From positions 54,808,001-54,872,000 of the forward strand of contig OZ024745.1 of assembly GCA_964016885.1 (NCBI GenBank): a DNA stretch of 64,000 bases. The letters run 5' to 3'. The position numbers and the translations under genes are program-made. Shown here piece after piece: positions 3,476 through 64,000 of the stretch; the first letter of the stretch is position 1; every line of letters starts with the position of its first letter. The DNA is from Eledone cirrhosa (lineage: Eukaryota). A model generated the notes under the pieces. It was given only the letters and a program-made list of their open reading frames with translations. It had not been told where the DNA came from and did no database searches.

Positions 3476-3542
3476 TATTTTATTATAGATATTTCAGAGG
3501 TACTGAGCTATCTTCAACAGTAAGTCATCATCAGATAAAATA
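3476..3542 (-). ncRNA. Type I hammerhead ribozyme motif (canonical CUGAUGA core)
   Basis: Minus strand: stem I TATTTTAT/ATAAAATA (8 bp), CTGATGA, stem II containing TACTG/CAGTA, GAAA, short stem III TATCTA, cleavage triplet AUA. Confidence 0.65.
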
Positions 3543-3785
3543 AGATGATGATTGACATACCTTGACTATGTAGATGGTTAAAATTCAGTCATGGCAAATT
3601 CAGTCATGTAAAACTTTATTCATTGAATTATTCATTGAAACTTGTTTAACCTTTAAATATATATATATATATATGTAGATAGATAGATATGTATATATAT
3701 ATATACATATATATATAAGGTGTCACAGCATTGAACATTTCTTATTAGCGCATATTATAGAAGTACATTGTCTAAGTTATATTTT

Positions 3786-7232: not shown

Positions 7233-7397
7233 TTCACGAACTCTTTCACGCACAAACAAATTTCGATATAATGTATTTGTTTTTCTTTTACCAGGATTTG
7301 TAGATGGTGTGATAAAAAGTATTGAAAATAAAGAAAATTCAAAAACACGTGCATACACGTAACATTAGAGAGACGCGTAATTATCTGATATTGCACG

Positions 7398-7775
7398 CGG
7401 TGGTTTGGCAGTATTTGTAGAGCGTCAGACACAATGCTTTGCAACATAGAGTTATGGCCCTTTACGCCGAAGTTAACTTTGCCTTTCATCCATATGGGGT
7501 AGATAAAATAAAGCACCAGTAACACACTTGCGTAATTGCTGGCCTTGTCCCAAAAGTAGAAATATTATTATTATTAGGATTGGCATCATGCTTTGCAGCA
7601 AAGAGATACGGCCCTTTACAGTCTGAGTTCAAACCCACTGAGGTTAGCTTTGAATTTCAACCTTACGGGGTCGGTAAAATAACATACCATTAATGCACTG
7701 GGGTCGATATAATAGACTTTCCCTTCCCCAAAATTGCTGGCCTTGTGCCTATAGTAGAAATTATCATTATTATTA
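7398..7775 (+). mobile_element. Two tandem copies of the tRNA-derived MetaSINE-core SINE
   Basis: Core TTTGCCTTTCATCC...GGGGT.GATAAAATAAAG at about 7478-7515 and again at about 7648-7685; each ends TTGCTGGCCTTGT...AGTAGAAA + (TTA)n; B-box GAGTTCAAACC at 7625. Confidence 0.85.
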
Positions 7776-8533
7776 TTGTCCTTTGATCTGTCAAGACGTA
7801 TGTGAATATCTCTCCGTAAGTTTTGTTAAATTTGCAGTGTTTACATTGTATTCATTGTTATATATTTTGTCACCAACTGTTGATAAGGACCCACACCTCG
7901 CCCTGTAATATTCTGGACTTGAGCCCAAATATTGGAACTTCAAAAAACATTTATATTTCAAAAGAAATTAGAAGGGACCACTTCCTTAAAGTTCAGCCAG
8001 CTATCACGTTACAGTGGATCGAATGTATTATTATTATTATTATTATTGAATGCCATGGTTGACGGAGGCTTGGCTCTGTAAGGTATAGTAATTTTACACC
8101 GCTATAACAATTGTAAATTGTTTAAAAGTTTAACCAAATTGTAGATAAAAACACCCTCCTCCTCGTGAGAGGGGTCTTTCTGCCCGTTATTTAGCGCTTC
8201 GGGGTTAAATAAACGCTTATTGGGGTTTTGTACCCAATATTCATTTTAAACCCCAAAAAAACATGGCTACAAAAAAAGAATTTTCACAAATCACTCCCAC
8301 TCATTCCGTCTTCTTCTTCCTCAATCGTCACTACATCAGAGAGAAGATTGTCTCTCTCCCTCCCTTCTCTAAATGTGTCTCTCTCCCTCCCTTCTCTTTC
8401 GCAAGCGACGCCAGTAAAGAAAAAATAGTTTCCAAAATCACGTGCAAAACGTGGAACATTTCTCCACGACGAAGACAACGACGAAAAAGGTGTGTGCGTT
8501 AAATACGAAAACCCATTTCATTCGTCTGACGTC

Positions 8534-10290
8534 ATGAATAATAGCAGTAGCAGCCGTAATAACAACAGCAGCAGCAGCAACATGACAAGGAAAACAACAG
8601 TAGCAGCCGCAACAGCATCAGCAGCATAAAGAACAACAGCATTAGCAGCAACAGCAACAACAACAGCAGCAGCAGCAACAACAACAACATCCACAGCAAC
8701 AGCGGCGGCGGCAGTCGTAGTACCAGCAGCAACAACAAAAGTAACAGCAGCTCTGTCGACGACAACAACAACAACAACCACAAAGAAAAACCAATCTCGT
8801 TTGCAGGTATCGCAAAGAACCTGGAAACCATCCTTATAACAAATGAGGAATTACAGGAAACAAGGAAGATGGACACGAAAACCGGACACCGAGCAATCTG
8901 CAAGGCAGCCGAAACATTTTTTGAAACCCAACAGCACTGTACGGTCACGTACCGTACAGTAAGCACACAATCCTGTAGGGTTGAAAGGGCCACAGAGGCT
9001 CAAATACAAAAAACCTTAGGGTCTGTGTGGAAGCGGAAAACGCATATCACCCGAGGCAAGAAATATGCCGCCGTAGATGTGCTTTTTGCCACACCCCAGG
9101 AGGCAAAGTTTCAATCCTTAGTGACCCTAAGGAGCGAGGAAATGGTGTTGGTGCCTTCCTATTGCGGACAAAACATTGTGAGGGTCAAACTGACCCACGT
9201 GCCCCCCAGAGGGATGGCCCCTTCGTGGCTGGCCGTGTCTGTCCTCGTCGGAATCGAGAACAAAACAACTGTACTGCAAGTACAGAAAAAAGTACGAGAA
9301 GATTGGGTCGGCACCTCCATTGAGATGTTAATCGAAACCAACCAGGAGTGCATCGAAGCTATCCCGGATGTGATAACGGCACTCAACTGCCCATAAGTGT
9401 TGAGGGCAAACGCCCGAAATGCTTTCGCTGTGGATCGAAGACTCACCTCAAGGCCTTCTGCAATGAGGACACCCTGAGAAAGGAGAAAACCCCCCTACTT
9501 CCGAAACTGGCTCCACTGCTACCAGCAATAGGACAAGCGGCAACCAGGAAGAATAGGTCCGTGGCACCCATACCCACGCCACGGAAAACAAGAACAGCAG
9601 CAGTGGAAGTATTGACAACAACAACAGCAATACCAACTGCAGCTACAGCAGAGACTCCACTGCAAACATCACCAACAACAACAAGTGAAAGAGTGGAGCT
9701 GGTACCCCTCCCCGACCTCACAGAATCGATCATGGAGTGTGAGGTGGGAGAGGGATGGCAAAAGGTCGCAAGAAGGCACAACGCAGAAGCAGCGCATCGT
9801 CGCCTTCGAAAAGGGAGGAAAGAAACGAAAAAAGGGTAAAGGCTACTGCAAAAAGACTTACAGCAGCAACAACACCAACACCATCACCACCCACACTAGC
9901 ACAAACATCACCATCGGCGGCAACCCCACCGCCAACAACAACAACACCTTCAACACCACTACCACAAGCACCAACATCGCAAACACAACAAAACATACAC
10001 ACCCAGCAACAACGACAAGAAAATAGCAGAACCACACCCACCCCCAGAAAAACAAATGCACAGCAATAAATACACACAACAAGAAATTAATGACTTACAT
10101 AATTGAACACACAGACATTTCACAGCACGACTACATAATACCAGCACAAATCAAAACACCAACGAACATAAGACTGGTAAAAATAGCACAGAAACAATAC
10201 ACAAACATTAAAACAAAATTCCCCAACGATAAGCCGAAGGGCCGATTCAACGGTCCTTTCACCAGACGATCAAGTGAAAAGGGATGGTGA
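8534..10290 (+). pseudogene. Tx1-like ORF1 (gag-like nucleic-acid-binding protein), frameshifted
   Basis: ORF pieces 8869-9396 and 9348-9839; zinc knuckle CFRCGSKTHLKAFC preceded by VEGKRP; low-complexity T/Q/A-rich ends; start position tentative. Confidence 0.75.
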
Positions 10291-10355
10291 AACCATCCTT
10301 CCTCTGCGAGAAGTAAGGTAAGTGGTCTTTCCCATCTTTTCCACTCCATTTCAAC

Positions 10356-13300
10356 ATGACCTCACTCAGAATAGGCAGCATAAATGCGCGTGGCTTGGGG
10401 TCGTCATGGAAGCAGGGCCACCTGCTCAACGACCTCAGGTCACTAAACATAGACGTAGTGGCCATCAGCGAGACCAGAATCTCCGAAGCACGGGCCTTGG
10501 CACCGATCTTCGGCGGCTACGATGTGTACGCATCTCCAAGCCGTCCTTGATCGGGGGGGGGGGGGAGTTGCTGTGCTTTTTCGGAGAGGTTTGGATCTCG
10601 CCATACGGGCCATCGTCCTGGACCCAGAAGGTAAGTTGGTGGTGCTGGACGTGACCAGCGGAGAAGGGCAAGCTTTCAGGCTAGTGGCCGTCTATGCCCC
10701 GACAGGAACAGGGCGGCCTGATTTCTTCCGGCGTCTGGAGACCTCTCTTGGAACGTCCCGCTCTTTAGTGTTAGTGGGCGACTGGAACGGGATCTTAGAT
10801 GCACGCTGGGACTGTGTGGGATTAGCGGATAGGGGAGGAGGGGCAAGAGCCTCACCAACCTGCTCAGGCGTTTTGAACTGTCTGACATGTACCGATTGGA
10901 TTTCCCGAATGTGCCAATGTGGACTTGGACAAATCGCATAGGGTCATCCAGATCATATCTAGATAGAGTATTTTGTAGGGAAATAGATAGGTCTAGCATA
11001 AGCTGTCCACAATTGAAGATAGTCAGCTACACGGACCACAAATTCGTGATCTGTGTGCTTGACTGAGATAGGCTTCATAGACGAGGACCCGGCTACTGGA
11101 AGCTAAACACGTCCTTACCAGCGCCGCAAGGCCTACAGAGACCGGATTAGCGAACTAGTTAAGCGAGCGTTGACGAGGGCCATCGTCAACAACAATTAGT
11201 GGTTTGCTCTGCAAAGAGCGATTTGAATAGAGTCCATTAGGTTTAGTAAGGCTTTAGTTATAGAGAAAAATAGAGCAGAGGGAGAACTAGTTACAAAATT
11301 AGACGAGGCGCTTAGCAAAGGCATCGCGGCCGACGTACTTGCGGCGAAATTGGCCCTCAACGAATTCTTCAATGCAAAGCACGAAGGCGGCGTTGTCAGA
11401 GCTAGGGTGCGTGCTCTCAGAAACGAGGGGACGAAAGCCGATCAATGGGCCCGAGTGGCGGAGGCACGTCGTGGCAACAAAGGCACGATCCGGTCTTTGG
11501 TGGACCACGACGGGCGCATGCTACTCGATCCCGGGAAAATGTATGAAGCTTTTCAGCGACACTTCGCTCAATTGTTCGGGGGCAGCGGCGGGCCGGATCG
11601 AGGGATGGACTTTAGTGTCTACCTCGACGGACTGCCGCGGCTCTCAGCCACTGAGGCGGAGTGTTGCGAAAAGCCGATAACAACCGCTGAAGTACGGGAG
11701 GCAATGACTGGCTGCACAAGGGGTAAATCGCCTGGTTTGGATGGTCTGCCATATGAACTTTACGTACAAATGCCAGACCTGTTCGGAGGCCTCTTGGCGG
11801 ACGTCTACTGAAACTGGCAACAGAACGCGAGAATTCCCAGCACTGTGAGCCGAGGAGCGGTGGCGCTGCTGAGAAAGGATCTGAACAAGGGGGATAACAT
11901 AGATAATATTAGGCCCATAACTCTGCTAAATACAGAGTTCAAGATTTTGGCCAAGGTGCTAGCAAAGAGGTTGGCGCTTGTCGTTGGTGGTCTGGTGGGA
12001 GAGGCGAAGACATGCGCCATTCCCGACAGATCCATCCACGATAACCTCCACCTCATACGATACATCGTAGAGAGGGTAGCTAGGGAACCTGGCACGGGTG
12101 GGTCCTTGATCAATTTAGATCAGTCGAAATCTTTCGATAGGGTCGACCATCGTTACCTAGCGGCAGTCCTCAGTGCGGCTGGCTTTGGGCCCGTCTTCAG
12201 AGGCTGGATCGCTGCCATGCACAGCGACATCTGCTCTGTGGTGAGAGTGAACGGTCACCTTTCGGAACCGTTCAACATCATGCGCTCGGTCCGCCAAGGA
12301 TGTCCCCTCTCGTCACTCTTGTACGTATTGACTCTCGAGCCATTACTGCACAAACTGGAGACGTTGAGGTGGGTCCCGCGCGAACTAGGATACGGAAGAT
12401 CCGTGTCAGCTATGCGGACGATGTCACCGTAGTGGTGTCGAACGCCAAACAATCGAGGCGATCGGCACTACACTAAGAGAATACGAAGCGGTGACAGGAG
12501 CAATGATCAACCAGGAAAAGTCAGTGGGCCTGCAGCTCGGCACCTGGAGAGGCATGTCCATGCCGTCCAATAGCGTCGTCGGGCGCTGGACGGACGGACC
12601 GGTTAAATTGCTAGGGGTCTGGTTCGGTCCGGACCTCCAGACAGACAAAAACTGGGACGAGGTGACGAGCAGGGTGGCTTCTATCACCCAGAAATGGGCG
12701 GAGTGGAAGCTATCCCTGAAAGGTCGAGCGGAGGTGGCGAACGCGTACATCGCGTCCGTCTTCTACTACCGCCTGACCGTTGTACCTTGTCCTAAGCCCC
12801 GCCTGACGGCGCTGGAGCGTTTGCTCTTTCGCTTTTTGTGGAATAGACGCGCCCCGATGATCAGGCTGTCCATCTGCTGTCAACACCCTCTATGTGGAGG
12901 GCTGGACATGCCGTGGCTGAAGATGCGCAGACACGCACTCTGGCTACGACATCTTCACCTCTTCATCGACGGTGATCAGGTGTGGTCGCCGTTTGCTAGA
13001 CACGTCTTTACCCAGCTCGTCTCCTTGACGGAGCCTGAGTCCTGGGCCAAGCGAAGACCAAGAGGGAGCGCTTGGAGACTGGAATGTCTTCAGACGCTCA
13101 CAGCCCTCGACCAATCGGGCAATGTGATCGGTGGAAACTCCACCTTGGCGTTCTATAAAGGATTAGTGAAGTGGAAGAGCGACGACGTACTTGGAGAAAC
13201 TCTAGGTATCGACGAAAATCAGCCAATCACTTCGGAAGGACTTTCCGGCCGGGTCCTACGGTCAACTTCCAGAAATCCCTGGCCTGGCAGTGCTACCGAG

Positions 13301-13759
13301 GAGCTTTGCCAGTTCGGGATAAACTCTACAGGCATGGAGGTGCTGTCAGTCGGGCATGTCCGAGATGCGCGCAGGGCGACGAAACCGTCCTGCACGCACT
13401 CGTCCAGTGTCCGAGCATTGCTGACCTGTGGGTTTATGTCGAACACCTGCTGTCACGTGTAGGACGGATCCAGCTATCAGCTGAGTGCATTGTGAGGAAT
13501 GCCTCGCCCTCTTCCTTTAGCCGGGAAGGGCAGGCAGTTTTATCTGGCGAAAGAGATAGTATGGAGGACACGTTTGAAAGGGCTGAAGACGAGGACTTAC
13601 CTCTTCAGTGATGCCCTGATTAACTTTTTCAAATTTCATTTGAAAAGGAAAATCAGGGTAGAGAGGGAAGTGCTCGCTTACCAGCATTTTGTTGAAAGAT
13701 GGGTGAGAGAAGCAAGAATGGCCCGAGTGAATGGGCCTACTCTGACTATGTATCTGTAA
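10356..13759 (+). pseudogene. Tx1-like ORF2 (APE endonuclease + reverse transcriptase), several frameshifts and stops
   Basis: MTSLRIGSINARGL...ISETR; VYAP; GDWN; SYLDR; TDHK; KSPGLDGLPYE; RPITLLN; LDQSKSFDRVDH; RQGCPLS; YADD; split over at least 7 ORF pieces. Confidence 0.93.
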
Positions 13760-19799: not shown

Positions 19800-19891
<92 letters not shown>

Positions 19892-19997
19892 ATAATAATA
19901 AAATTGAAGACTAAAATCCAAAGAGGGCTCGATAAGGAAAATATATATCAAATATATAAGAACCGTAGAGCAAATATTTATTAAAATAACAGATTAA

Positions 19998-20048
19998 AGT
20001 TTAAGCAAAGAATCGCTGCTTTCACCCTTAACGGGATCTTCTGAAACT
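19998..20048 (-). ncRNA. Hammerhead-like motif with U4A core variant, within a ~250-bp (TA)n-flanked element (about 19955-20205)
   Basis: Minus strand: AGTTT-CAGAAGA-T-CCC-GTTAA-GGG-T-GAAA-GCA-gcgattctt-TGC-TT-AAACT; all three stems pair; identical copy at 46872-46922. Confidence 0.6.
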
Positions 20049-20201
20049 AACAAAGTCAATCTATAAACGCAGAACTGGATATTTCAAAAAACGTTGCAAC
20101 CGGAGGAAGACCGGAAGACGATACTTTGGTTCGTGGAAACGTTCGCTGGCAAAGAACGGGAAAAAACGAATAATACGTCATTAATAGGAGCGGAGAAAAA
20201 C

Positions 20202-20280
<79 letters not shown>

Positions 20281-22041: not shown

Positions 22042-22384
22042 GTGTGTGTGTGTATCATATGCAACGATTGATTTACGTGGAATATTTTACAAATATTACA
22101 TATTATATTTTGCGTTATGATAATATTTGGTTAATTTTGATTAGATAAACTCTTCTTTTTGAAGTTAACTAGATATTTATCATTCTTTCTATAATTTTAT
22201 TAGTATAGAGCAGGCTTAATCAATGGTGATTTTGAAAGCGATTGTATCATGCTGAACCTGCTTACTTTCGATTACACTAAGTTATTATATTGTCAGAAAT
22301 TTTAACCCATATTACATTCAAACTGTTCCTTTTATGTCTTCATACAGAGTAAGTGAACCATGAACAACAGGGGCGCTCTCGTGT

Positions 22385-22578
22385 ACGGTGAATTGGCATT
22401 ATCGGTAGAGGGTCGGATGCCATGCTTCGCAGCATAGAGTTATGACCCATATACGGACTAAGGTCAAACCCCGCCGAAGTTAACTTTGCTTTTCATCCTT
22501 ACGGGGGTCGATAAAATAAAGCATCAGTAAAGCACTAAGATAATTGCTGGCCTTGTGCAAAAAGTAGAAACAATTACT
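22385..22578 (+). mobile_element. Full-length copy of the tRNA-derived MetaSINE-core SINE
   Basis: A-box TGGCATTATCGG, B-box-like GGTCAAACC, core TTTCATCCTTACGGGGGTCGATAAAATAAAG, tail TTGCTGGCCTTGTGC.AAAAGTAGAAAC. Confidence 0.88.
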
Positions 22579-22924
22579 ACGTTCATCTGTTGTTTTAACG
22601 CAAAACTTTGTAGATCCAAAGATTTTAATCTGAGTCGCCTTTTGAACTTCTTGCTGAATTTTACATCATGGATTTCTGAGAAATTTCCCGACATGTTGAT
22701 TCTTACGGCGTTGAATCAGTCGGGAGATAATGGGGCATTGTTTCATAGCAATACAATTATCTATTGTTTGAAGTGGGTTATTTTCATTGTGTCTAATTCT
22801 TATTTTCGTTTGATGTTGATAAGACGTCGGTTTTAGTGTATATCAATATGATATATGGCAGCCGTCTCGTTCAGAATTCTAGCTGAATTTTGTATTTACA
22901 AATGACATATGTATATATTTATGT

Positions 22925-24463: not shown

Positions 24464-25263
24464 TTTCTTTTTTCAGTCTGGTCTACCATGTTTGAGCCTC
24501 CTGTTGGAGATAGATAGATATGTTTCTTTATTAGCCACAGATAGACGTGTACCAAACACACACACATTTCTTACTCTCTCTGTACCCCCTCTTTCTCTCT
24601 TCATTTATATATATATATATATATGGCGTTGTTATTTGGCGTTGTTGAAAAGAGCAGTGGCCTTTGACATGGCAATAAAAACTGGAGGCAAAATTCTTTC
24701 TGTACCAAAACCACGGCACACACACACGTTTGTGTGTGTATGTATGTATGTGTGTATGTGTGTGTGTGCGTGCCCATTTATGTGTGTATGTGTGTGTGCG
24801 TATCTATCTATGTATATATATATAAGGGATTTCTCACTGTCACCAAGCTTCTCAATTCATTCATTGCTACCATTTTGCTACGAGGTATTTTATTTTGCGA
24901 AGTCCTATTTTCCTCCTGAGTTTGTGATTTCAGAAAAGGGTAAGAAATTCTTCATATTTTGCATCTTTTGTATTTTGACTTTACAGTTTCAATTGTAGAA
25001 TTGTCTATTCACTCAAAATATTACAACAGCTAACAGTGAAATATAGAATTTAGAAAAAGAAAAGCTTTTTCGACTGACATCAAATCTTTTTTTTTTTTCA
25101 AAAATATATAATTTGAAATAGCTTGCTTTTGTTTTGGACTGAAACTTTTTTGTATTTAATTCGTACGAGTACTTTTTAAGATTCTAACATAACTTGATTT
25201 TGCCCAGTAATCAAAATCAGTAGTATATTGAAAAATAGAAAAATAGAGTGGGGGCGTTTGGCG
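23425..25263. mobile_element. ~1.84-kb insertion interrupting the Tx1 copy; possible hAT/Charlie-type non-autonomous element
   Basis: ATCTAGAT at both junctions (23417-23424, 25264-25271) fits the NTCTAGAN 8-bp Charlie target; left end CAAATTTTCTCAAC resembles a Charlie TIR; no matching right TIR is visible. Confidence 0.45.
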
Positions 25264-28155
25264 ATCTAGATCGTATGTAGATAGGTTCTTTATTAAGCCA
25301 GTAGGTAAGGATAGGTTGTCCACATATTCAAATGTTCGCCTATTCATATCACAAGTCTGTGATCTGCGTCGTTGACCTAGATAGGACACGCAAGTTAGGA
25401 CCTGGATACTGGAAGCTGAACATGTCATTCCCGGTACGTAAAGTTTACATAGACCGAGTCATCAATTTAATTAAGCAAAATTTGACAAGGGACGTCGTCA
25501 ATAACATGTGGTGGGGACTCTCAAAAGAGAGATAAGAGCAATGCCGAGGGTGAAATGGTAGCTAAATTAGACTAGCTTATTAGTAGTGGCATTACAACTG
25601 ACGTACTAGTGGTGAGAATGTCATTAGACCGTTTCTTTAATGCAAAACACGAAGGTTGCATTGTCAGAGATAAGAAACGAGAGAACTGAAGCTGTTCGAA
25701 GGACCCGCATATCGGATGCTTCAGCGTTGTAACAAAAACAACAATTCGGTCTTTGACGGACCAAGACGAAGGTGAGCTGAACATATTCCATGCAGGTTTG
25801 TGAGGCCTCTCGCAGTCATTTTGCTCAGCTGTTCGGGGAGAGCTGGGGATCGGAGACGGTGACTGATTTCAATACCTACCTCGATTGCCTACCGTGCCTT
25901 TTACCAGTCAATACTGGGCGCTGCGAAAGGCCGATAACATCAGTCGAGATTGGTGATGCCCTATTCAACTGCACATGGCGCAAGTCACGCGGTTTGGATG
26001 GTCTGCCCCAAGACGTTTACATAGACATGCTAAACTTGTTCTCCGATCTCCCCGAAGCGCTCTACTGCAACTAGCAACAGAGCTGGAATATTCCCAGTTC
26101 TGTGAGCCGGTGCGTAGTGACGCTCATAAAGTAAAACGAGAAAAAGAGAGATACATTAGACAAGTTCAGGCCAATAACTCTGCAAAACACCGAGTCTAAG
26201 ATTTTGGCCAAGTTGTTAACGAAGATGTTGGCGAACGTAGTCGAGGATATGGTTGGGGAGGCACAAACTTTGGCAATCCCGATCAGGTCCATACATGACA
26301 ATGTCGACCTCATACGATATATCATAGAGAGTGCATGGTGTAAATCTGGCTTCGGTGGGGCTCAGATCAATTTAGATCAATCGAAAGCTTTCGATAGCGT
26401 TGACCATCGATACATGGAGAATATCCCCAAGGCAGCTGGCTTCGGTCTCGTCTTCAGAGGTTGCGTCTACTGGGTGGTCAAAGTTAATGGCCATCTTTCA
26501 GAACCGATTCAGATCCGATCGGTCCGTCAATGATGCCCTCTCTCCTCCCTTCTGTAAGTATTGACTATCGAGCCTTTACTGTGAAAGCTAGAGCTGTTGC
26601 AGGGCATCACACTCAAACCAGGACGTGGAAGAGCGGTGTGGGATTATGCGGACGATATCAACGTAATTGTGTCGAGCACCTCGGAAATAGATGTTTCCGA
26701 CACTTGTTGTGAGGAATATGATGGGTTGAGGGGTGCAAAACTAAAAACCGGAAAAGCCGGTGGGCTTGCAGCTCGGCACCTAAAGAGGCAAGTCCCCACT
26801 GTTCAACAGCAGTGTAGGTCACTTGACGGAAGGACCGGTAAAGTTGATCGGGGTCTGGTTCGAACCAGGTATCCAGGTGGATAAGAATTGGGACGATATT
26901 ACAATCAGGGTGGCCGCTCTCACTCGGAAATTGCCCGAAAGAAAGCTGGCTCTAAAAGAGCGAGCGGAGGTCGTGGATGCGTACATCGCGTACGTCGTCT
27001 ATTACCGCCTGACCGTCGTACTTTGCCCACGTTCGCACCTCATCAAATTGGAATGGCTTTTTTTCAACTTCTTATGGAAGGGACTAGTTCCGTTAGTGAG
27101 AAGGTCCACCTGCTGCCAGCACCCTCTACGTGGAGGGCTGGCCATGCCGTGGCTAATGATGCGTAAACATGCGCTGGGCTTGCGGCATCTTCAGATACAC
27201 AAAATGGTGAACAGGTGTGTTGTCAGGCGCTCACTGCCCTCTGATTAGCGGGCAATGTGGGCAGTGGAACTTCCACTTTTGAGTTTTATAGAGGATTGGA
27301 GATGGGCAAGTGCGATAGAGGGGCTCTGGGCGTATACGAAGTCGAACTGACGAGTCTGTTCCGGAGTACGTTTGAAACGGAGACTACGGATAACTTCCAA
27401 AAATCTCTCACTTGACACTGCTACCGGGGAGCATTACCGGTTCGAGATAGACTACATGCGTGGACGTACTGCCAGCCGGACCTGCGCCAGATGCGCGCCG
27501 GACGACGAAATCATTCTGCACCAACTCTTTCAGTGCATTACTGACCTGTGGAGGTATGTCGAACAGCTGTTCTATCGTTTGAGGCGGATGTGGTCATCGA
27601 TCCTTTCCACAGTGAGGATCGCCCCATCACCTTCATTTGACTGGTGGTTGTAGAGAAAGAGGTTGTGTAGTGGACCACGTTGGAAGGACTGAAGACGGAA
27701 ACCTTTCTTTTTGGCAAACATTTCAGGGTTTTCATGTTTCACTTGGAAAGGAAGATGAGAGTGGGGAGAGAAGCTGCTGCAGCCCTGTACCTTTGCTAAA
27801 TAGTGGGTGAATGTGGCAAGAATAGCCCACGTGAATGGGCCTGCTCTAAGCTTGCGCGTGTGGGCTGGTTAACTTGAGCAGGAGAGGGGTGTTTTTCTAG
27901 AGTGCCCTTGAAGCGCCAGCTGGTTCAGAATTGGTGGGGTACGTGAGTTTCTCTAGGTACTTCACCTCCTATTGGGAAATTTGTTTTGGCATATTTTTAT
28001 ATATCTCATATTTGTTTACAATTTTGTCATTGTTAATTGATTTTGTTATTGTATATCTTTACACGAATTTAATTGTAAAATCCCACTGTCCCTGACTTTG
28101 TAGTGTCCTTTATATGTTAGCCCTTGTGACCAATAAAAGTAATCATTATTATTAT
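25264..28155 (+). mobile_element. Tx1-like LINE, rest of ORF2 and 3' UTR (heavily decayed)
   Basis: SRSYVDRF, GPGYWKLN, LDQSKAFD, YADDI (26645), EGPVKLIGVWF; ends AATAAAAGTAATC(ATT)n like the 8.4-14 kb copy. Confidence 0.9.
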
Positions 28156-30633: not shown

Positions 30634-31892
30634 CGTTGCTTTTGTTCTTCCTCATTTTTCTTTCCTATTTCAGTCGTTTCATTTTTAGTATGTACCTTCG
30701 CTACTCCATTACGCATGGCTCTGTGCATTCCTGATGACTGCTGTTTTGTTTAGGAATGTAATATATATTGTATTGAATTACATGGCATAACATTTTCGCA
30801 GTGACATGTGTTGTTTTTTTTTGCTGCATATATTTGTAATTTCTGAGTATTTCATTATGTAGCTATCTCTATGTTTTTATATCTTTCTATAAACATTTAT
30901 TATTTTTCAATGGGCACATTCCGCTTATCTGTGTTTCTAGATATTTTCTATATTTCATTTAGAGATACATTACCGTTTGTTTGTGACAACTCTGCTTGTA
31001 TGCACTTCCTTCTCAGTTGGTCTTTGACAACAATATATGACCGATTAGACTAGTTCACTATTTCCGTAAGAATTGTCATATATCTGTGTATGTTCGATTT
31101 ATCATTCTCTGTGACATTTGGTAGTGTAGGTTTGTATTATTTCGTTTCGGTTGGAATTACATATTACTGACATCATGATTTGTGTACAAAGATATACACT
31201 TGGTGGCTTTCTTGTCTGGACGTGTATTCCTTCTTAGCTTATTCCAGACAGCCAAGCATTCTCCTCTAGATTTAGTTATGCTACAGTTATTTTCACTATT
31301 CTGCTATTTTACATGTTTGCCGACTGCCGGTGAGCTTTGATACTGTGCACCAAACCATACATCTTCAGTCATAGCTTTGATACATGTGCCACACTGCAAT
31401 TTCCTGATATTTCCATATTTCATCTCAAATTGCATGTCGCATCTTTTAAAAGCACTCATTAATTTTGGTTTATTTTAATCTGTCTAGACTTGATAATTGA
31501 TTAAGTGACCTATTGGTAATAGTAAAACTATAATTTATTATGAGATGTAATAAATAAAATACATAATATTAAACGTTGAATATATTGTAATTAAAATATA
31601 TTACAATTCTTTTTTTTTATGCCTAATTAATATCACAAAACAATACAGCACCGCGATCCAGACATCATAATTATTGCTAATTTCTATCAAATCCTTGTGA
31701 CATTAAGTTTTTTTTTTCTGTGGAGCATGGGGAGTTCTGGTCAAGTAAATGGACGTCGGGCATATCATTTCCTTCACCCGACTGCTACATCGATAAACCT
31801 TATGATTTAATGTTAAATTGTCGATAAGGCTGGGCTATCTGGCAGTACAAATATATATTCAACACAGCCTCCACATTATTAGATTGTGGTAC

Positions 31893-32060
31893 TTTATTTT
31901 ATCGATCCTGCAAGGATGAAATGCAAACTTAACCTCGGCGGGATCTGAGTTCAAATCCCGCCGAGGTTAACTTTGCTTTCATCCTTACGGCGTCGATAAA
32001 ATAAATGTACTGGGTAATTTCTGGCCTTGTGCCTTGTGCCAAAAATAGAAACAATTATTA
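31893..32060. mobile_element. SINE core in a head-to-head (foldback) arrangement
   Basis: 31893-31945 is the reverse complement of 31954-32005; centre at B-box GAGTTCAAATC; SINE tail continues to about 32058. Confidence 0.85.
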
Positions 32061-32465
32061 GATTTTGGTATTGACCAGATTTCAGACATTCAGTCTCTCA
32101 CTCTTCTTCTAACTGACAATGTTACGTGCTTCTGTCACGTGGGGTATTTGTGTTATTATTTAGAAAAAGCCTATATCTCGGGGGTCACAGCTCACAAAAA
32201 TAAGATGGTGTAAAGCAGATAGTAACAACAAAAGTAGTCACTGAGGAGTTCACAGAATATCTGATGAACGAAGTTTAAGAATAATCATCTAAACAGCTAT
32301 TTGGCTATTAAACTAACGGACTGGGAAATTATGTGTAATATCTCGACCTCTTGTCGCCACGGTCGGAAGTTTACATATCTCTAGACCCAGTCTGCATTTC
32401 ACCATGCATTGAGTACATCCATGATTAGTGGTCTCCCCGGTCTCAGTAGCGCACAATCCCCCCCC

Positions 32466-42787: not shown

Positions 42788-43267
42788 CTGTGTGTGTGGG
42801 GGTGGGGTGGGGGGTTGGGGGGGGGGGGGGGGGGGGGGTTGTAGCAGCTTATCCTTGCGTATTTATGCTATCCTCCTGTGGACCTGTTTTATTGAAAACC
42901 AATCGAAATTATATTCATGTTCTACACCATATATGTAAATATTTCTGGGTAAACGCATATTAATTATCATTCATAAAGATCCGTATAAGTTTTTTTTTTC
43001 CCTTTCAAGATACACATGCAATATTCCTCCCATAAAGTTTCATAATTACACACGCAAACGCACACGCACACACAAACATACACGCAAAAACACACAAACA
43101 CACAAATTCACACAGACACACACACACACACATATATATATATATTTATTTTCTCTCGCCACCAACATATATTTACCATATATATATAATACAACTTTGT
43201 ATGTATGTGTGAATAGGCTTATAAATATATATGTATATATATTTATAAGCCTATATATAATTATAAG

Positions 43268-43320
<53 letters not shown>

Positions 43321-43340
43321 ATATATATATATATATATAT

Positions 43341-43915
43341 AGAATTCACATAAATCAAAGTTCTGTTCAAACCATTTATTAGCTTACAATTGTTTCATCC
43401 AAACCGAGGTTTGGGGTCTTCGGAGCAATTTTTCAATGTTTGTTTACATACATGACCTCCTTTCCAACACAAGAGACATACAGATACATATGTATATATT
43501 GATGCACAGTGGGGTGACATCCATTATATTATTTTTGCATGGCAATTTAAATTCAAAAATTAAAATCATATTAAAGCACAATCAAAGCAAAATTTAAATT
43601 AAAATACAATATCGGCAGTTTACATTAGCTTCGTAAACTGCCGATGTTGTATTTTAATTTTAATTTTGCTTTGATTCTGTTTTAATATGATTTTAATTTT
43701 TGAATTTAAATTGCCATGCAAAAATAATATAATGGATGTCACCCCACTGTGCATCAATATATACATATGTATCTGTATGTCTCTTGTGTTGGAAAGGAGG
43801 TCATGTATGTAAACAAACATTGAAAAATTGCTCCGAAGACTCCAAACCTCGGTTTGGATGAAGCAATTGTAAGCTAATAAATGGTTTGAACTGAACTTTG
43901 ATTCATGTGAATTCT
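43341..43915. mobile_element. 575-bp palindrome (283-bp arms, 9-nt loop) of a Penelope-like pseudo-LTR, one hammerhead motif per arm
   Basis: Arms 43341-43623 and 43633-43915 are near-perfect reverse complements; each ends HHR-AATAAA-...GAATTC-(TA). Confidence 0.8.
43382..43426 (-). ncRNA. Minimal hammerhead motif (U4C core, GUA site); mirror copy at 43830-43874 (+) has GAAA changed to GAAG
   Basis: GCT-CCGAAGA-C-CCCAAACC-TC-GGTTTGGA-T-GAAA-CAATTG-TA-AGC; palindromic stem III CAATTG. Confidence 0.65.
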
Positions 43916-44102
43916 ATATAACTGCTCTGTAGAACAACTGATGTTATTACATTGAGCTATTTATCTTACTGATAATAAGGTAGTAATATATTACTGTCTT
44001 TCACTGTTTAGGGTTTAATATATATATAACTATAAAAAGTTTTAGTATATACATAACCATAAATAGTATACTTAATACTATATATATATATATATATATA
44101 TA

Positions 44103-44702
44103 TCCGAATTTCCAATCTTTTATGAAGAGAAACCGTTGGTAATACCATTTTGGACATGTGAATATTTAAATCGTATTTTAATTTATTTAAAAGATTGTAT
44201 AATGTTTGCTTGTTCTGCTCATGTCATTTTTATAGTTCTGGTATCTCAAATTAGTACCATTGAACAACAATTGTATTATAGACACCCTATATATTTCCGT
44301 AGGTTCTTAGTACCTGTAGGAATATTAATCTCATTTTATGTATATTCTCCCTCTGTGTAGAGAAGAAAATGTTGTATGTTGCTGGTATTCGTTTTAGTGG
44401 CGTGACAGACAACAAGTCTATAATATTTCCGCTTTTACTGACAGTCTGTTTATGTGTGGGTCACTTTAACGGCCTGACCTCATACTTCATGCAATAAGCG
44501 ATATATTTATAACTTTAGGCTTTACGCCCTATAGAATGGAAATAGTTATCTGAAGAGCTGATCTTTGCATTGGAAATTCTCCGAATTTCCAATCATTTGT
44601 GAAGCGAAACCGTCGGTAATAGCATTCTGGACAGGTGAATATTTAAATCGTATTTTAATTCATATAAAAGATTGTTTAATGTTTGCTTGTTCCGCTTATC
44701 TC

Positions 44703-44705
<3 letters not shown>
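44103..44705 (+). mobile_element. Retrozyme/Penelope-like non-coding element: 477-nt unit with 126-bp direct terminal repeats, inserted in (TA)n
   Basis: 44103-44228 matches 44580-44705 at an exact 477-nt offset; the repeat spans the 3' half and cleavage site of a hammerhead; (TA)n on both sides. Confidence 0.75.
44533..44628 (+). ncRNA. Type I hammerhead ribozyme, canonical core
   Basis: AGAAT-ggaaata-GTTAT-CTGAAGA-GCT...ATTGGAAATT-ctccg-AATTTCCAAT...AGC-GAAA-CCGTCGG-TA-ATAGC-ATTCT; GUA cleavage after 44618. Confidence 0.8.
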
Positions 44706-44801
<96 letters not shown>

Positions 44802-44889
44802 AATAAGGAACTGATTATGCAGAGCGGTTGCGGGTCAAGCAGAAATTGAAAATTAGAATTGGTGCTCTGAAATACCGATATATATATGA

Positions 44890-44927
<38 letters not shown>

Positions 44928-45004
44928 TCATATATATATCGCAACCGCTCTGCATAATCAGTTCCTGATTATTACTAGAATTCTATAAGAATCAAACATT
45001 CATG

Positions 45005-45099
45005 ATTTTCAGCAAACAGGTGGAGTAGTTAGCTTTGATAAGCACCAAAAAGTGCGAAACAGAGCTCTGTCAGCTTTATCTCCCCTGTTTGCTGAAAAT
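45005..45099 (+). ncRNA. Extended type I hammerhead ribozyme with compensatory U3-A8 core
   Basis: 16-bp perfect outer stem (45005-45020/45084-45099), GGAG/CTCC, internal loop, AGCT-TTGATAA-GCAC-caaaaa-GTGC-GAAA-CAGAGCTCTG-TC-AGCT; GUC cleavage after 45071. Confidence 0.85.
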
Positions 45100-45245
45100 T
45101 AAAGTAAGTGAGATTGTCACTACTCTAAAATAATAGCGTAAGGTCTTCGAAATGCTTTTAATTAAGCATACAGTGTATTGCAAAATACACTATATATACA
45201 TTCATATATATATATGAATGTATGTATAGTATATTTGGCAATATA

Positions 45246-45303
<58 letters not shown>

Positions 45304-46506: not shown

Positions 46507-46972
46507 CTAGCTGAATAGCCGGCCGTTGCTCGGGATTTGCTCTAGGGTTCTTATATATTTGATATATATTTATCCTTCTCGAGCCTCGTGAAGTAAATAC
46601 GTTTGTTTATATTGTGTTATTGTGTATGCAAAAATATCTGTACACGAATATATAAATAACAGTACAGAGAAGTACGGAATACCTCGGCCTCGGGTTGGTG
46701 TCTAGATTTTGTGCTTATAAAAAAAGTTCGTCGTACATTACCAGGGTTTTTTTCCGTTCGTAGAAAATGAATACTTTATCGCCAATTAAATACTTGTGTT
46801 TATATGTGTATGCAAACATATCTGTACGCGAATATATAATTATATATATATATATTAAAATAACAGATTAAAGTTTAAGCAAAGAATCGCTGCTTTCACC
46901 CTTAACGGGATCTTCTGAAACTAAAATAATAAATCTGTGAACGCAGAAGTAAATGTTTCGAAAAACGTTACA

Positions 46973-47012
<40 letters not shown>

Positions 47013-56592: not shown

Positions 56593-57489
56593 AATCGATT
56601 TAGAAATATAGAGATTAAAAAAAGAATCTGATTCGTTTCTAATAACTATATAATACATAATGTTCTGGACTAAAACTTCACGAAGTCCATAGATTCATAT
56701 CATCGGCCAGTTATCTTTATAGTCTAAATAACACTAATGGCGTAAAGTTATCTTAGACTACCAGGGTTCAACTCACACGTGTACTGTCGAGTTTATACAT
56801 TCTTTTGTTTATATATATACTTAGATATATTGGCTTTGTATTGTTGATTTTAATTTTTGTAGTTGTGTATTCTCCGACAAGGCACCTGCGAAGGCAGCAG
56901 GCATCTTCTTCGATGCTCTGTCTGAGGTGCTGTTTCATCGACCTCTACCCCTTCGGAAACCTGATCTCTTGATACACTTTCTCAGACAATTTTTCGTTTT
57001 GTCTCCTTGGTATGGCAAATCAATATATACCCAGATATTGTATATTTATCTTTTCGTGTCTTTATCTACTTTTCTTTCTTTTTGTTGGTGTTGTTGTGTC
57101 TTTTGTCGTTGTTGTTGATCTGCGAGTGGTTGCAGTTGCTATTAGGACTAAGGGTGGTGTTTCATGTCGGCGTGTCAAGCATGTGACTGTGTTTCAGTTC
57201 AACTCGTATACTTTCGACAACGTTTTTAACAAAGCGTCGTTCATAGTATAACTTTAGCAGCAACTTCCAAAACTTGTTTATCACGGATATGTTTTGGGTC
57301 ACCTCGACGCATTTGCCCCTGGGGCGTACAATGTCTTTCCTGGTCACGTGGTGTCTTAGGCTTTATAGATATGTTGGGTAGATATAACATTAATAAATAC
57401 AATATTGAATTATTAACTAAATAAATTATTGAACGCGGTATTACCTAACAAAAAATCTAAATGAATAAATATAACATAAATTATAATAT

Positions 57490-57670
57490 AATTGTTTCTA
57501 ATTTTGGCACAAGGCCAGCAATTATATCAGTGCATTACTGGAACATTATTTCATCGACCCCATAAGGATGAAAGGCAAAGTTAATCTCGGCGGGATTTGA
57601 AATCACAGTGTAAAGGGACATAACTCTATGTTGGAAAGCATGGTGTCCAATCATCTACCGATACTGCCTT
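57490..57670 (-). mobile_element. tRNA-derived MetaSINE-core SINE
   Basis: Reverse complement of the 22.4-kb copy: GGCACAAGGCCAGCAATT...TCGACCCCATAAGGATGAAAGGCAAAG...GGCGGGATTTGAA...CTACCGATACTGCC. Confidence 0.88.
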
Positions 57671-58078
57671 TAAAACAGACTCTTATAAAAATCGTCGTGA
57701 ATCGACGAATCTGCTTAACAAATACACGTGCACCATGCAGAAGCAGTCGAATAGCCTTAACTTACACTGCTTCCACCAAACAGTCAGTCGCCTATACTTA
57801 ACAGACTTAATAAGCAAGCCGGCTGGCATAACTTACAAGATTCCAGCGCAACCTCATTGTGTTCAGAGAGTAGCCGCAAAACAACTATTCTAGACATATT
57901 ATATATACAGTTGTCCACCGGTATACGCGGGGGTCAGGTTCCTAGAGCACCCACGAAGAGTGAAAAACAGCGCATATTGAACGTGATCAATAAAAATAAC
58001 TATAAACGTCACATGCCGGGGGTACACTGTATACACACACACACAACCACACACACACACAACCACACACAAACACAA

Positions 58079-59397: not shown

Positions 59398-62300
59398 CTA
59401 CAGGCTGATATAGAGAGAAGGCCCATTCACTCGGGCCATTCTCGCTACTTTCACCCATCTTTCATAAAACTTTCTGGGGTAGAGCACCTCTCTCTCCATT
59501 CTGATCCTTCTTCTAAAGTGGTACTTGAAAAAAAAGACCAGTTGTTGGCCGGAGAGATAGGTGTCTGACCTCAGCCTTTTCAACCTTGTCCACCATACAA
59601 CTTCTTTCGCCATGGCTATCACACAGAGGAAAACCGCCTCTCCTTCGTTTTTGAAAGGGGGAGGCGGTTTGATTGTGACAATGTTCTCGGTGGTCAACCG
59701 GATTGGTCCCACCCGCAACAGTAGTCGTTCTAAATAGCCCCACAGGTCAGCAACGCCCGGGCAGTGTACGAATGCGTGTGCGACGGTTTCTTCGTCCCGC
59801 ACGCATCTTGGACAGATCTTCTTCGAGGGGTCCCTACCCGGGCGCCCGTGTCTGTAGAGCTTGTCCCGAACGGGTAGAGCTCCTCGGTAACATTGCCAAG
59901 CCAGGGACTTTTGGAAGTTGTCCATCGGTCCCGGGCCAAACGTCCTACCGAACAGACTGGCCAGCTCGTATTCCTCCATGCCCAGAGCCTCTCCGAGAGC
60001 GTCGTCGCACTTACTGCGCACCAACCCTCTATAGTATGTTGAGGTTGAGTCTCCACTGATTGCCGGATCCGCTTGCCAGAGGGCCGTGAGCGCTTGGGCA
60101 CATTCAATGTGCCAGTCGCCCACTTTTCTCGGTCTTTGCTTGACCCAGGATTGCAGCTCGGTGAGTGAGACGAGTCTCGGAAAGGTTCGCCTCACAGACA
60201 GGGCCCACACCGGCTGACCGGTGAGGAATACCTGGAGGTGCCGTAGCCTTAATGCGTGTCTACGCATCGTCCGCCACGGCATCCCCAGCCCTCCGTTGGA
60301 AGGGTGTTGACAGCAGATGGATCTTCACACCAAAGGAGCCCGCTTCTTCCAAAGAAATCGGAAGAGCGCGCGCTCCATTTTGGCGAGTGTTTTCTCTGGG
60401 CAAGGCACGACGGTCAAGCGGTAGTAGATGACGGACGCTATATAAGCGTTCGCCACCTCCGCTCGACCTTTCAGGGATAGTTTGCACTCGGCCCACTTCT
60501 GGGCGAGTGCAAACACCTTGCCCGTTACCTCGTCCCAGTTTTTCTCCACCTGGAGGTCCGGTCCGAACCAGACCCCGAGCAGCTTCACCGGTCCCTCCGT
60601 CCAGCGTCCGACGATGCCGTCGGAGGGCATCGTTTTGCCCCTCCACGTCCCGAGTTGCAAACCGACGGACTTGTCCCGGTTCAGCTTGGCTCCTGTGAAC
60701 CTTTCATATTCCTCCAGTAAGGTGCCGATCTGCCCGATTTCCGAGGCGCACGACACCATTACTGTCACGTCATCGGCGTAGGCCGACACCGCTTTCCGCA
60801 ATCCCGGTTCCAAGGGGATGCCCTGCAACAGCCCCAGCTTCCTCAGTAGTGGCTCGAGAGCCAGCACATACAGGAGGGAGGAGAGAGGGCATCCCTGTCG
60901 AATGGATCGCGTGATTTGGAACGGCTCCGAGAGGTAGCCGTTCACCTTGACCCTCGAGCAGGTGTTGCTGCTGTGCATTGCAGCAATCCAGCCCCTGAAA
61001 ACGGCTCCGAAGCCTGCCGCCACGAGCACCGCATCCAAGTACCGATGGTCAACCCTATCGAACGCTTTAGATTGATCCAAGTTGATCAGGGCCCCACCAA
61101 TGCCGGGTTCGTTCCCTACCCTCTCTATGATGTATCGCATGAGATGGAGGTTGTCGTGAATGGACCTGGATGGGATGGCGTATGTCTGCGCATCTCCCAC
61201 CAGGTTCCCGACGACATGCGCCAACCTCTTCGCTAACACCTTGGCCAAAATCTTTAACTCTGTGTTTAGCAGAGTTATGGGCCTGAAGTTATCTATGTCA
61301 TCCCCCTTGTTCTCGTCCTTCCTCACCAGCGTGACTACGCCCTTGGTCACAGAACTGTGAATTCTCCCGTTCTGTTGCCAGTTGCAGTAGACCGCCTCGA
61401 GGACACCGGAGAACAAACCCGGCATCGCTACATAAAGTTCGTATGGTAGACCATCGAGACCCGTAGATTTGCGTTTGCCGCATTGGCTCAGCGCTTCCCC
61501 TATTTCAGCGGCTGAAATCGGCCTCTCGCAGGACTTGGCCTCCCCGTCCGAGAGCCGCGCCAGACCGTCGAGGTATGGACCGAAATCCATGGCCCCACCC
61601 GGCCCGCCGCCCCTCCCGAACAGTCGTGCAAAGCGCCGTTGAAAGGCCGCGCTCATCCGCTCAGGTTCAAGGACCACGCGTCCATCCTGGTCCTTCAAAG
61701 ACCGAATCGTGGACTTGTTTCAACTTTTTGCCTCTGTCACTCGGGCCCAGCTAACAGCTTTGGCTCCCTCGTTACCCAGAGCACGTATTTTACTCCTGAC
61801 AACGCAGCCCTCGTGCTTCGCATCAAAGAACTGGTCTCGGGCCGTTCTTGACGCCAGCACGCCGGCCACGTTGCCACTCCTAATCGCCTCTTCTACTCTA
61901 TTTGTTAATTCCCTTTCAGTTCTATTCCTATCTGATGCTAATTCCCGACTAAAACCTATCGATTCTATTCTAATTTCTCTCTTGAGAGAGCCCCACCACC
62001 TGTTGTTGACAATTGCCCTCGTCAGACGCTGCTTAACTAGTGTGCTAATCCGCTTACTGTAAGCTTTGTTTGTCGGTAAAGACAAGTTCAGCTTCCAGTA
62101 ACCGGGTCCCTGTCTATGAGTTCTATCAAGGTTGACCACTCCGGTCAACAACTTGTGATCCGAATAGTCAACCATGAACATTCGTGGACAGCTTAATATG
62201 TCCCTATCCTTATTTTTAACTAGGAACCTATCTAGGTACGACCTGGATGTTCCACTGCGATTACTCCACGTCCACCGTGGCACAGTCGGAAAATCCAGTC

Positions 62301-62835
62301 GATATCTATCGGCCAGATCAAATCGGCCGATTAATCGTTTGAGGCTGTTACACCCCCCTCTATCGGGACATGCCCCTACATAGTCCCAACGTGCATCCAG
62401 GATACCATTCCAGTCCCCCACTAAAAGCAAGGAGCGAGACGTTCCCAGGAAATTCTCCAGGCGTCGGAAGAAGTCTGGTCGTGGTGTCCCCGATGGGGCA
62501 TACGCTGCCACAAGCCTGAAAGCTCCACCTTCACCTCTGCCGACGTCTAAAACCACCAGTCGACCCTCCGGGTCCAGGTGTACCTTCTGTGTGGCAAGAC
62601 CCAGGTATTTTCGCAGCAGAACGACAACCCCACCCCCACCCCTCGGCTGACAGAGAGATGCGTAGATCTCAAAGTCGTCGAAGATGGGGGCCAGTTGGCG
62701 CTCGCTGCTGATCCTGGACTCGCAAATAACCATTACATCCACTCTGTGCGACCTGAGGTCATTTAAGAGTTTGCCCTGTTTCCAGGACATCCCCAAGCCG
62801 CGTGCATTCACACATCCAACTCTTATATTGGCCAT
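59398..62835 (-). pseudogene. Tx1-like ORF2 (APE + RT + C-terminal Cys motif), two frameshifts
   Basis: Three consecutive ORFs: 62835-61720 (APE: NARGL, GDWN, SYLDR, SDHK), 61698-60325 (RT: QGCPLS, YADD), 60282-59398 (CPRC..EETVAHAFVHC). Confidence 0.93.
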
Positions 62836-62873
62836 GTTGGTGCTGAAGAGGTAAAAAGGAAGAGGAAAGGAAA

Positions 62874-64000
62874 TTACTTACCTCTTCTTCTCCTGGGGGC
62901 CAGGCTGCACAATTTCCATGGGGTGTTGGAAGGGTTGTTTGGTGGGGTGGTGGTTTGTAGTGGGGTGAGGACATCAGTGTGTGGTGGGATTAGGGTGTTT
63001 GGTGGGGTGTGGGTGTCTGTTGTGGGGGTGGGGAAACATCTCAATAGGACGCTGTTATGTGGTTTGGTGCAGTTGGTCCCCACATGCATTGGATGGTTCT
63101 TTTTCAAGGTTACATAGGTTTCCGTTGGGACCCTAATCATTATTAGGTGCGGTTTCTTCGCTGCGTAGGTGAAAGTGATCCCTTCGGTTTCCACCGAAGG
63201 GTTATTTTCTATCGCTTTCATCAGCGTTTTATTGTTCTTGTTAATGTATGTATAGAGTTTTTGTTGTGTTGTGTTTGTTTTTGTTTGTTGTTCTTGTGCG
63301 TGTTTGCGTTTTGTAGTACGTGTTATGTTTTGAGGAGGGTTGGGTTTTTTATTTATGATGTTTGTTCTGTTTGTGCTGGTGGCTGTGTGTTTGTGGCATT
63401 TTTGTTAATGTGGTGCCTTTTTTTTTTCCTTTTCACCTGTTGAAAGGGTTCTCCCTCGTCGTCACTGGGTGACGTTGATACGGAGTCCTCTTCCGTGTTG
63501 TTGGGCAGGGGTATATTTCGGGGTTTTGTTGTGGTTGCTTTTGTATTTGTTTTAGGTGGGGAGGGGTTGGGTGGAACAGTGTTTTGTGTTGTTATTTTTC
63601 CTTGTTGTTGTTGTTGTTGTTGTGGTGGTGGTGGTGGTGGTGGTTGTGTTGTGTTCGGGGTTGGCAGAAGAGCCTTTTTTTTTACTCGTTAATTGAGGAC
63701 AGGCATCCCTCAGGTGACCCCTGCTTAAGCAGTGTTAACATGATGGCCGCCTTCCCTCCACTGAATTGTTTATATAAGTTAGCCCGTCCAGAGGCACGCG
63801 TTGTGGGATATTCGCTATTCGTTCTGGGCTCATTTGCACCAGAACTTCTACGCTGGTCCCACCAAATACACCCCCGGAGGACTTTCCTATTGAAATTATC
63901 TTGTCTTCGTCAAAGTTAATTATTCCACATAGTATCCACCAAATATTTAGATTTGGTGTGATACTCATTATTTTTATTCTGTGTCCTTTTCCCCCTGTAT
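62874..64000 (-). pseudogene. Tx1-like ORF1 (partial, disrupted)
   Basis: GTSVEVLVQM...NSVEGRRPSC*HCLSRGHLRDACP aligns with GTSIEMLIE...SVEGKRPKCFRCGSKTHLKAFC of the 8.4-kb element; stop codon inside the knuckle. Confidence 0.75.

Follow-up and report, generated by a model that had tools for sequence, protein, structure and literature searches.

Penelope-like elements (PLEs) of the Hydra clade carry RW[KR], DKT in place of DKG, a CxCx5C linker and, at the C terminus, a GIY-YIG domain with CxxC and CxH around the catalytic E and N, insert in (TA)n nearly always, and include the Octopus bimaculoides family Hydra-1_Obim (accessible parts of PMC8557442, whose Fig. 2 legend also describes PLEs as having a tail at one end only). 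PLE hammerhead ribozymes (HHRs) are known with U3-A8 cores and with palindromic, dimer-type stem III (PMC4209133, in part). For PAc, the Poseidon element of Anolis, the genomic tail is delimited by two internal start sites of reverse transcription, and nicking and extension of both target strands occur in vitro, the start sites being non-homologous to the target and HHR cleavage dispensable in vitro (Frangieh et al. 2024, PMC11167929, portions consulted). Animal retrozymes, in turn, were suggested (PMC7229834) and then argued (Li et al. 2026, bioRxiv 10.64898/2026.07.22.740005) to be non-autonomous PLE derivatives, as far as the accessible text of both goes; the latter reports that 8 of 9 Xenopus retrozyme dimers were without cleavage in vitro. 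The enzyme that moves animal retrozymes has so far been inferred from co-occurrence and from similarity to PLE pseudo-LTRs (pLTRs). In a literature search with most subscription papers outside its reach, PMC8557442 alone was relevant to octopus or cephalopod hammerheads or retrozymes, and the accessible part of a 2026 Octopus vulgaris repeat annotation (PMC13282606) has 0 occurrences of 'hammerhead' or 'ribozyme'.

The stretch analysed here (the window) comprises 64,000 nucleotides of Eledone cirrhosa DNA. We read the interval 43220-45301, with a probability of about 0.8, as a stack of three separate insertions of retroelements within a single (TA)n tract: E1, a Hydra-clade PLE's 3' end that is truncated and inverted, and E2 and E3, two ORF-free tandem HHR retrozymes likely copied in trans by a Penelope-type RT/GIY-YIG enzyme. 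A short fragment to the right of E3 is probably a fourth insertion (Table 1). The first-pass annotation had reported three elements separated mainly by (TA)n tracts and without obvious shared sequence beyond the ribozyme core, and on both points we agree: the tracts are present, and pairwise blastn among E1, E2 and E3 gave best E values of 0.025-0.063, from AT-rich 14-21-mers at chance level. Divergence indicates that E2 is probably the oldest insertion and E3 the youngest, and the (TA)n left on the flanks of each would likely draw the next one in. The kinds of element are already known, but the E1 parent appears to be a new Hydra-clade family and E2 and E3 two new retrozyme families; the supplements of bioRxiv 10.64898/2026.07.22.740005 may list related elements. 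No tRNA was found in the window.

Table 1. Components of the stacked insertions, in window coordinates.
Positions	Strand	Feature	Details
43220..43341		Imperfect (TA)n tract	Left edge of stack
43342..43623	-	E1 inverted arm: pLTR of a Hydra-clade PLE, its 3' end cut short on the 5' side	Outer end is site a; 8 mismatches in 282 nt to the other arm
43382..43426	-	E1 left-arm type I HHR	Core CCGAAGA at 43423
43633..44078	+	E1 sense arm, 3' UTR/pLTR end plus 164-nt tail (43915-44078)	Ends at site b; 96-97% identical to ORF-linked copies
43830..43874	+	E1 right-arm HHR	Core CCGAAGA at 43833; invariant A15.1 replaced by G at 43863
44079..44103		(TA)12	Between E1 and E2
44104..44704	+	E2, ORF-free 477-nt monomer present 1.26 times	Begins (5') within HHR stem II, stops (3') at site a
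44545..44623	+	E2 type I HHR	Canonical C3-G8 core CUGAAGA at 44550
44705..44802		(TA)49 tract	Between E2 and E3
44803..44892	-	E3 inverted arm, matching part of the 319-nt monomer in reverse complement	Outer end at neither usual site
44893..44924		(TA)16	At E3 inversion junction
44925..45204	+	E3 sense arm, monomer lacking a short internal piece close to its 5' terminus	3' end at site a
45004..45100	+	E3 extended type I HHR	U3-A8 core UUGAUAA at 45035-45041; z -8.3
45215..45247	-	3' fragment (33 nt) left by an older sister family of E3	5 differences from young E3
45248..45301		(TA)26	Right edge of stack

E1 had been described as a palindromic, non-autonomous element with an HHR in each arm. 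The inverted repeat is there (288 nt, 97% identical, 43336-43623 / 43633-43920) but the element runs on beyond it to the end of the sense arm, and, with the CCGAAGA core in both arms, the substitution of A15.1 leaves an intact core in the left arm only, the right-arm HHR being predicted to be inactive. The left-arm HHR has U4 changed to C, a 6-bp stem II with a closing C.U mismatch, a palindromic stem III and a 3-bp stem I; its cut is predicted between 43385 and 43384, its constrained fold lies 1.7 kcal/mol above the minimum, and it is probably dimer-dependent. Besides U4C, the E1 HHR has a variable mismatch at 10.1-11.1, and both count against our reading. As for autonomy, the ORF-linked copies 96-97% identical to E1 contradict the earlier description: at 20 further E1 loci read upstream, the family runs through a 3' UTR of ~1.5 kb into an ORF. 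Identity of the 446-nt sense arm is 96.9% to L061 and 95.7% to both L068 and L069 (each ORF-bearing but broken), and 78-81% to L098 and L100, which belong to a sister subfamily with open frames (L098-L101, L103) and carry uninterrupted frames of 830 aa. Judged from these sequences, E1 belongs to an autonomous Hydra-clade PLE family, of which it is the 3' end.

The 830-aa frame has YRDD at 357 and, at its C terminus, a GIY-YIG domain with IIYSC/YIG at 709/723, frames L098-L101 and L103 have RWR at 41 and DKT at 126, and that of L098 shows CxCx5C at 689, CxxC at 787 and CQH near its end. The E1 parent thereby resembles Hydra-clade PLEs in RW[KR], DKT, CxCx5C, C-terminal GIY-YIG, CxxC and CxH, and likewise in a 3' type I HHR with palindromic stem III located in the pLTR (here with the U4C core variant), in (TA)n targets and in tandem and inverted insertions; a pyrimidine mismatch at 10.1-11.1 is likewise seen in published Hydra HHRs (PMC8557442, part of supplement S2). 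It differs in its unit of ~4.7 kb (tandem spacing 4697 bp) versus lengths of <3 kb, which in the accessible text of PMC8557442 are a tendency and not a diagnostic motif, in its 818-aa ORF and ~1.5-kb 3' UTR, in the HHR core CCGAAGA, in a tail of about 163 nt versus the usual 30-40, and in its very high copy number. Since the HHR and the ORF start differ by eye from those of Hydra-1_Obim, the E1 parent is taken to be another family; the clade assignment itself is one by motifs, with likeness to the Hydra proteins in the consulted part of the PMC8557442 supplement judged by eye. Pfam gave 0 matches on the parent protein, a homologue search returned 50 proteins at 29-41% identity, none informatively named, and its atlas neighbours (score 0.95-0.98) have GIY-YIG in 26-50% of members. 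As the Hydra ORFs of this genome escape Pfam, this repeat class is probably under-annotated. A Naiad PLE was considered as the E1 parent and dropped, Naiad having an N-terminal GIY-YIG, CxC and DKA versus the C-terminal endonuclease and DKT found here. The U3-A8 HHRs beside E1-type ORFs in L094/L096 belong to a separate repeat and not to E1.

For E2, which had been presented as a 477-nt direct-repeat element with a canonical HHR, the repeat (126 nt, 90%), its 477-nt spacing and the core were all recovered, with the amendment that only one HHR is complete because the first repeat begins inside stem II. This HHR has a long interrupted stem II, a palindromic stem III and a 5-bp stem I with three-way covariation, and is predicted to cut at GUA, after 44618. 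In an alignment of 37 of the 54 distinct segments, taken from the more diverged end and leaving out deleted, chimeric and most similar ones, 94.6% of cells are paired, the stem I pair types include A-U (14), G-C (11) and U-A (5), and 0 of 500 shuffles reach the covariation score. E2 copies were seen as 1.1-1.6-mers; no long E2 array was present among the copies read, and a relative of E2 forms an array with a 483-nt period.

The extended U3-A8 HHR earlier assigned to E3 was likewise found, with its UUGAUAA core and a predicted cut at GUC, after C45071; it has a 4-bp stem II, a palindromic stem III and a long stem I with an internal loop. Beyond the earlier description, E3 also has an inverted arm. 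The family has arrays 13.0 and 11.0 units long, the units measuring 318-319 nt, and a 2231-bp spacing of E3 HHRs at two loci, considered as a full-length partner, proved to be 7 x 319 nt inside such arrays. Among 22 sequences, hand-picked to represent 74 distinct segments, both partners have changed in 12 of 23 pairs, and the covariation score is reached by 0 of 500 shuffles. The catalytic 3-8 pair is U-A in 11, C-G in 9 and U-G in 2 of these, and U-A in 53, C-G in 11 and U-G in 2 of the 66 segments with a readable core. E3 resembles the HHRs of Schistosoma Cercyon PLEs, in which U3-A8 replaces C3-G8, and is unlike them in its full stem III, extended stem I, ORF-free repeat and C3-G8/U3-A8 switch among homologous subfamilies (PMC4209133, in part).

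E2 and E3 are probably non-autonomous type I HHR retrozymes, as the first-pass annotation proposed. Both are non-coding (longest ATG ORF 44-56 aa, none above 56 aa), low in GC (0.33-0.35) and without LTR/PBS/PPT organisation; they consist of short head-to-tail monomers, each with a type I HHR whose fold is kept by covariation, and what precedes a monomer, in the copies read, is either another monomer's end or an inverted piece. In these respects, as in their 33-35% GC, single type I HHR per monomer, dispersal as monomers to multimers and PLEs in the same genome, they match metazoan non-LTR retrozymes as described in the accessible parts of PMC7229834 and bioRxiv 10.64898/2026.07.22.740005, E2 at 477 nt being slightly above the 150-450 nt range given in the former. 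They differ in that no link to PLE pLTR sequence was seen in the families sampled, whereas 21 of the 57 families in Xenopus have one (Li et al. 2026, bioRxiv 10.64898/2026.07.22.740005), and in their (TA)n targeting, fold-back arms and paired start sites, which are absent from the retrozyme descriptions in the consulted text of these two sources.

A search with Rfam Hammerhead models, advised in the first-pass annotation, gave little: at gathering score 0 families were detected in the window, and E3 alone had a weak Hammerhead_HH9 match (24.3 bits, E 0.0037, cut-off 52). The first strict descriptor found E2 and E3 and neither E1 arm, its 3-4 matches against shuffle maxima of 1-5 being no evidence on their own. 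Genome-wide, exact HHR patterns matched 1445 times for E1 with its sister subfamily (99 of 100 matches listed having the sister-subfamily form), 52 times for E2 and 174 times for E3, with 0 for the reversed controls, and a 29-nt end motif of E3 relatives matched 2027 times versus 0 for its reversed control. DNA searches gave 2242 (E3), 3057 (E2) and 2143 (E1) first-look candidates; among the 40 scored of each, full-length matches were 97-99%, 85-91% and 94-97% identical, respectively. All three elements are therefore present in many genome copies, as opposed to the single copies that would have counted against the earlier reading. The predicted HHR folds of the window copies each lie 1.7-3.5 kcal/mol above the minimum-energy fold. 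Stem covariation, another point on which that reading turned, was evident for E2 and E3 and weak for E1, in which 2 of 12 pairs covary and 13 of 500 shuffles reach the score (40 of 61 segments); in the E2 and E3 comparisons, related sequences can exceed shuffles without structure, but slid controls were far lower (0.42 versus <=0.14). The main descriptor missed HHR-like remnants at about 3480-3545 (-) and 32241 (+) of the window, one of which belongs to a family also present in loci L286/L292, the other resembling a minimal HHR of a Neptune-like PLE.

The three families have in common two fixed end sites (a and b) past the predicted cut, at 43 and 206 nt in E1, 85 and 199 nt in E2, and 133 and 167 nt in E3. 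Where an inverted insertion is (TA)-capped at both ends, one end lies at site a and the other at site b in 14/14 cases for E1, 6/6 for E2 and 20/22 for E3, so that 40 of 42 overall use one site per arm, where about 48% would be expected; this set consists of inverted insertions with both ends at known sites, the end anchors having been chosen after viewing copies. Without the (TA)-cap filter, mixed-site pairs number 22/25, 7/10 and 30/44. E1 in the window is itself an inverted insertion with one site per arm. The (TA)n targeting ascribed to the elements at first pass was borne out in all three families: 3' ends lie at or next to (TA)4+ in 58/72 (E3), 46/54 (E2) and 47/77 (E1) merged blocks versus 10% of random 42-mers, counts that are rough, given a TA run within E3 and internal repeats among the E1 blocks.

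Given that this two-site end pattern is common to all three families, we infer that one kind of enzyme inserts them all, and a PLE enzyme likely mobilises E2 and E3. The HHR, acting as a dimer in E1 and E2 and possibly as a monomer in E3, would cut multimeric transcripts, and the cut RNA would be circularised, or the multimer left uncut. The enzyme would then nick both strands of a (TA)n tract, and reverse transcription would start inside the RNA at sites a and b, one per strand, which would give more-than-unit and fold-back copies. The three families resemble PAc in having two internal start sites downstream of the HHR that become insertion ends, and in their AT-rich targets; they are unlike it in that the sites are 34-163 nt apart, lie at TA-like element sequence, are used one per arm in inverted insertions and occur in ORF-free elements too (PMC11167929, consulted portions). 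As PAc start sites are not homologous to the target and HHR cleavage is not needed, priming by TA microhomology and a circular template remain proposals here. We lean slightly towards a more specific version, in which the two-start-site signal of PLEs is also present in the retrozymes and both (TA)n strands are primed asymmetrically by a dimer of the PLE enzyme, one subunit per RNA site. If so, asymmetric dimer priming would explain fold-back insertions with a tail at one end, and PLEs would be tied to retrozymes as their mobiliser by mechanism, without common sequence.

The proposal of trans-mobilisation by a PLE enzyme, made at first pass, thus gains the shared end pattern, while no partner was found: the four PLE families whose ends were readable, from single copies or many, include no autonomous element with sequence in common with E2 or E3. 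The E2 and E3 profiles matched loci of a Neptune-like family, the E1-type Hydra and a second Hydra in isolated cases, in none of the three family-wide, and their tail regions compared with those of E1, two other Hydra and two Neptune-like families were no better than shuffles (P 0.07-0.92). The search covered a few of many PLE families. E2 and E3 might accordingly be the terminal repeats of unsampled autonomous PLE families, their short copies being passive truncation products, exactly as E1 proved to be, and PLE ORF pieces do lie within 1.5 kb of several E3 loci. We nevertheless consider this unlikely, since in the copies read a monomer end, not an ORF, lies upstream of monomers, E3 forms pure arrays of 11-13 units and the E2 relative an array of its own, and coordinates and reading place the ORF pieces near E2 and E3 copies in reverse, cut mid-frame or split off by (TA)n or unrelated sequence.

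The missing partner could also point to a LINE of the RTE, Tx1 or R4 type as the mobiliser, with inversions arising through L1-style twin priming; LINE-like ORFs occur in the window, and LINEs are named as an alternative driver in the accessible text of PMC7229834. We hold this to be very unlikely: E2 and E3 lack poly(A) or a LINE-like 3' tail, and their ends fall at two sites inside a circularly permuted monomer, one per arm of inverted copies, as in the autonomous PLE E1. Most improbable, in our estimate, is that the HHR motifs are non-functional relics in repeats spread as DNA, satellite-like, and clustered by AT-rich instability. Tandem arrays do exist, HHR cleavage is a prediction, and the E1 HHR is atypical with one window copy mutated, but compensatory changes across subfamilies include the catalytic 3-8 pair, and dispersed copies are 5'-truncated with fixed 3' ends, the pattern of retrotransposition. 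Mobilisation of E2 and E3 by a PLE enzyme, which we prefer, has a source at hand in the several young, intact PLE ORF families of this genome. One of these, a Neptune-like PLE (L260, L264, L265, L276 and others), has 150/150 scored copies identical over 120 aa and open frames of up to about 1217 aa, and must have been active very recently; its HHR is minimal, without a clear stem III.

The stack had been presented as a hotspot, yet it is ordinary in this genome. A sample of 60 stretches of ten kb each, placed at round-number positions (599,800 bases in all), gave 58 HHRs in 24 stretches with the relaxed descriptor, versus 0-2 in five shuffles; 26 of the 58 came from three arrays and the remainder represent about 32 insertions. 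PLE ORF pieces occurred in 14 of the 60. Extrapolation from this sample to 3.0 Gb suggests roughly 1.5 x 10^5 HHR insertions or 3 x 10^5 motifs, and simple arithmetic gives a few hundred 2-kb stretches with three HHRs even in the absence of targeting. Other dense loci have four HHR families in 3.5 kb (L040) and four in 6 kb (L296), and the diverse set of HHR retroelements proposed for this genome at first pass is supported. The axolotl has up to 120,000 HHR copies (PMC7229834) in a genome of 28 Gb (bioRxiv 10.64898/2026.07.22.740005; both sources in part), so the HHR density here would be about ten times the axolotl's or more, an approximate ratio because the HHR descriptors differ.

Besides this HHR load, what is new here is the paired-start-site signature in two ORF-free families, matching that of an autonomous PLE of the same genome. 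With start sites mapped to a few nt and young intact Hydra and Neptune-like ORFs available, the in vitro assay used for PAc could test trans-mobilisation, and the genome offers dozens of natural HHR variants with covariation.

Several other repeats were noted in the window and the loci read. At (TA)n at window positions 19890-20205 and about 46880-46975 lie 3' ends, on the minus strand, of a second Hydra-type family that is very abundant (L233/L235 type). Its ribozyme-like motif, with A in core position 4 and a stem III that is poor, is apparently fixed in a young family. Degraded Tx1/L1-like LINEs with endonuclease and RT frames occupy 8563-13611, 25200-27899 and 59398-62877. A very high-copy SINE-like repeat (600-899, 7300-7799, 22300-22599, 31800-32099 and 57400-57699), which matches 72-85 fetched loci, presumably resembles cephalopod SINEs. 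Elsewhere, a third Hydra family with 60% protein identity to L098 has a U3-A8 HHR in its 5' repeat (L112:7083 and L315). Further ORF-free HHR arrays with periods of about 422, 483, 310, 311 and 595 nt occur at L298 (G000:C28:110000001-110010000), L078, L137, L283, L310 and L094, the units at L137 looking near-identical, and a frequent repeat near (TA)n contains a GAAAC-palindrome-GUC half hammerhead (L006, L016, L022, L058, L191, L202).
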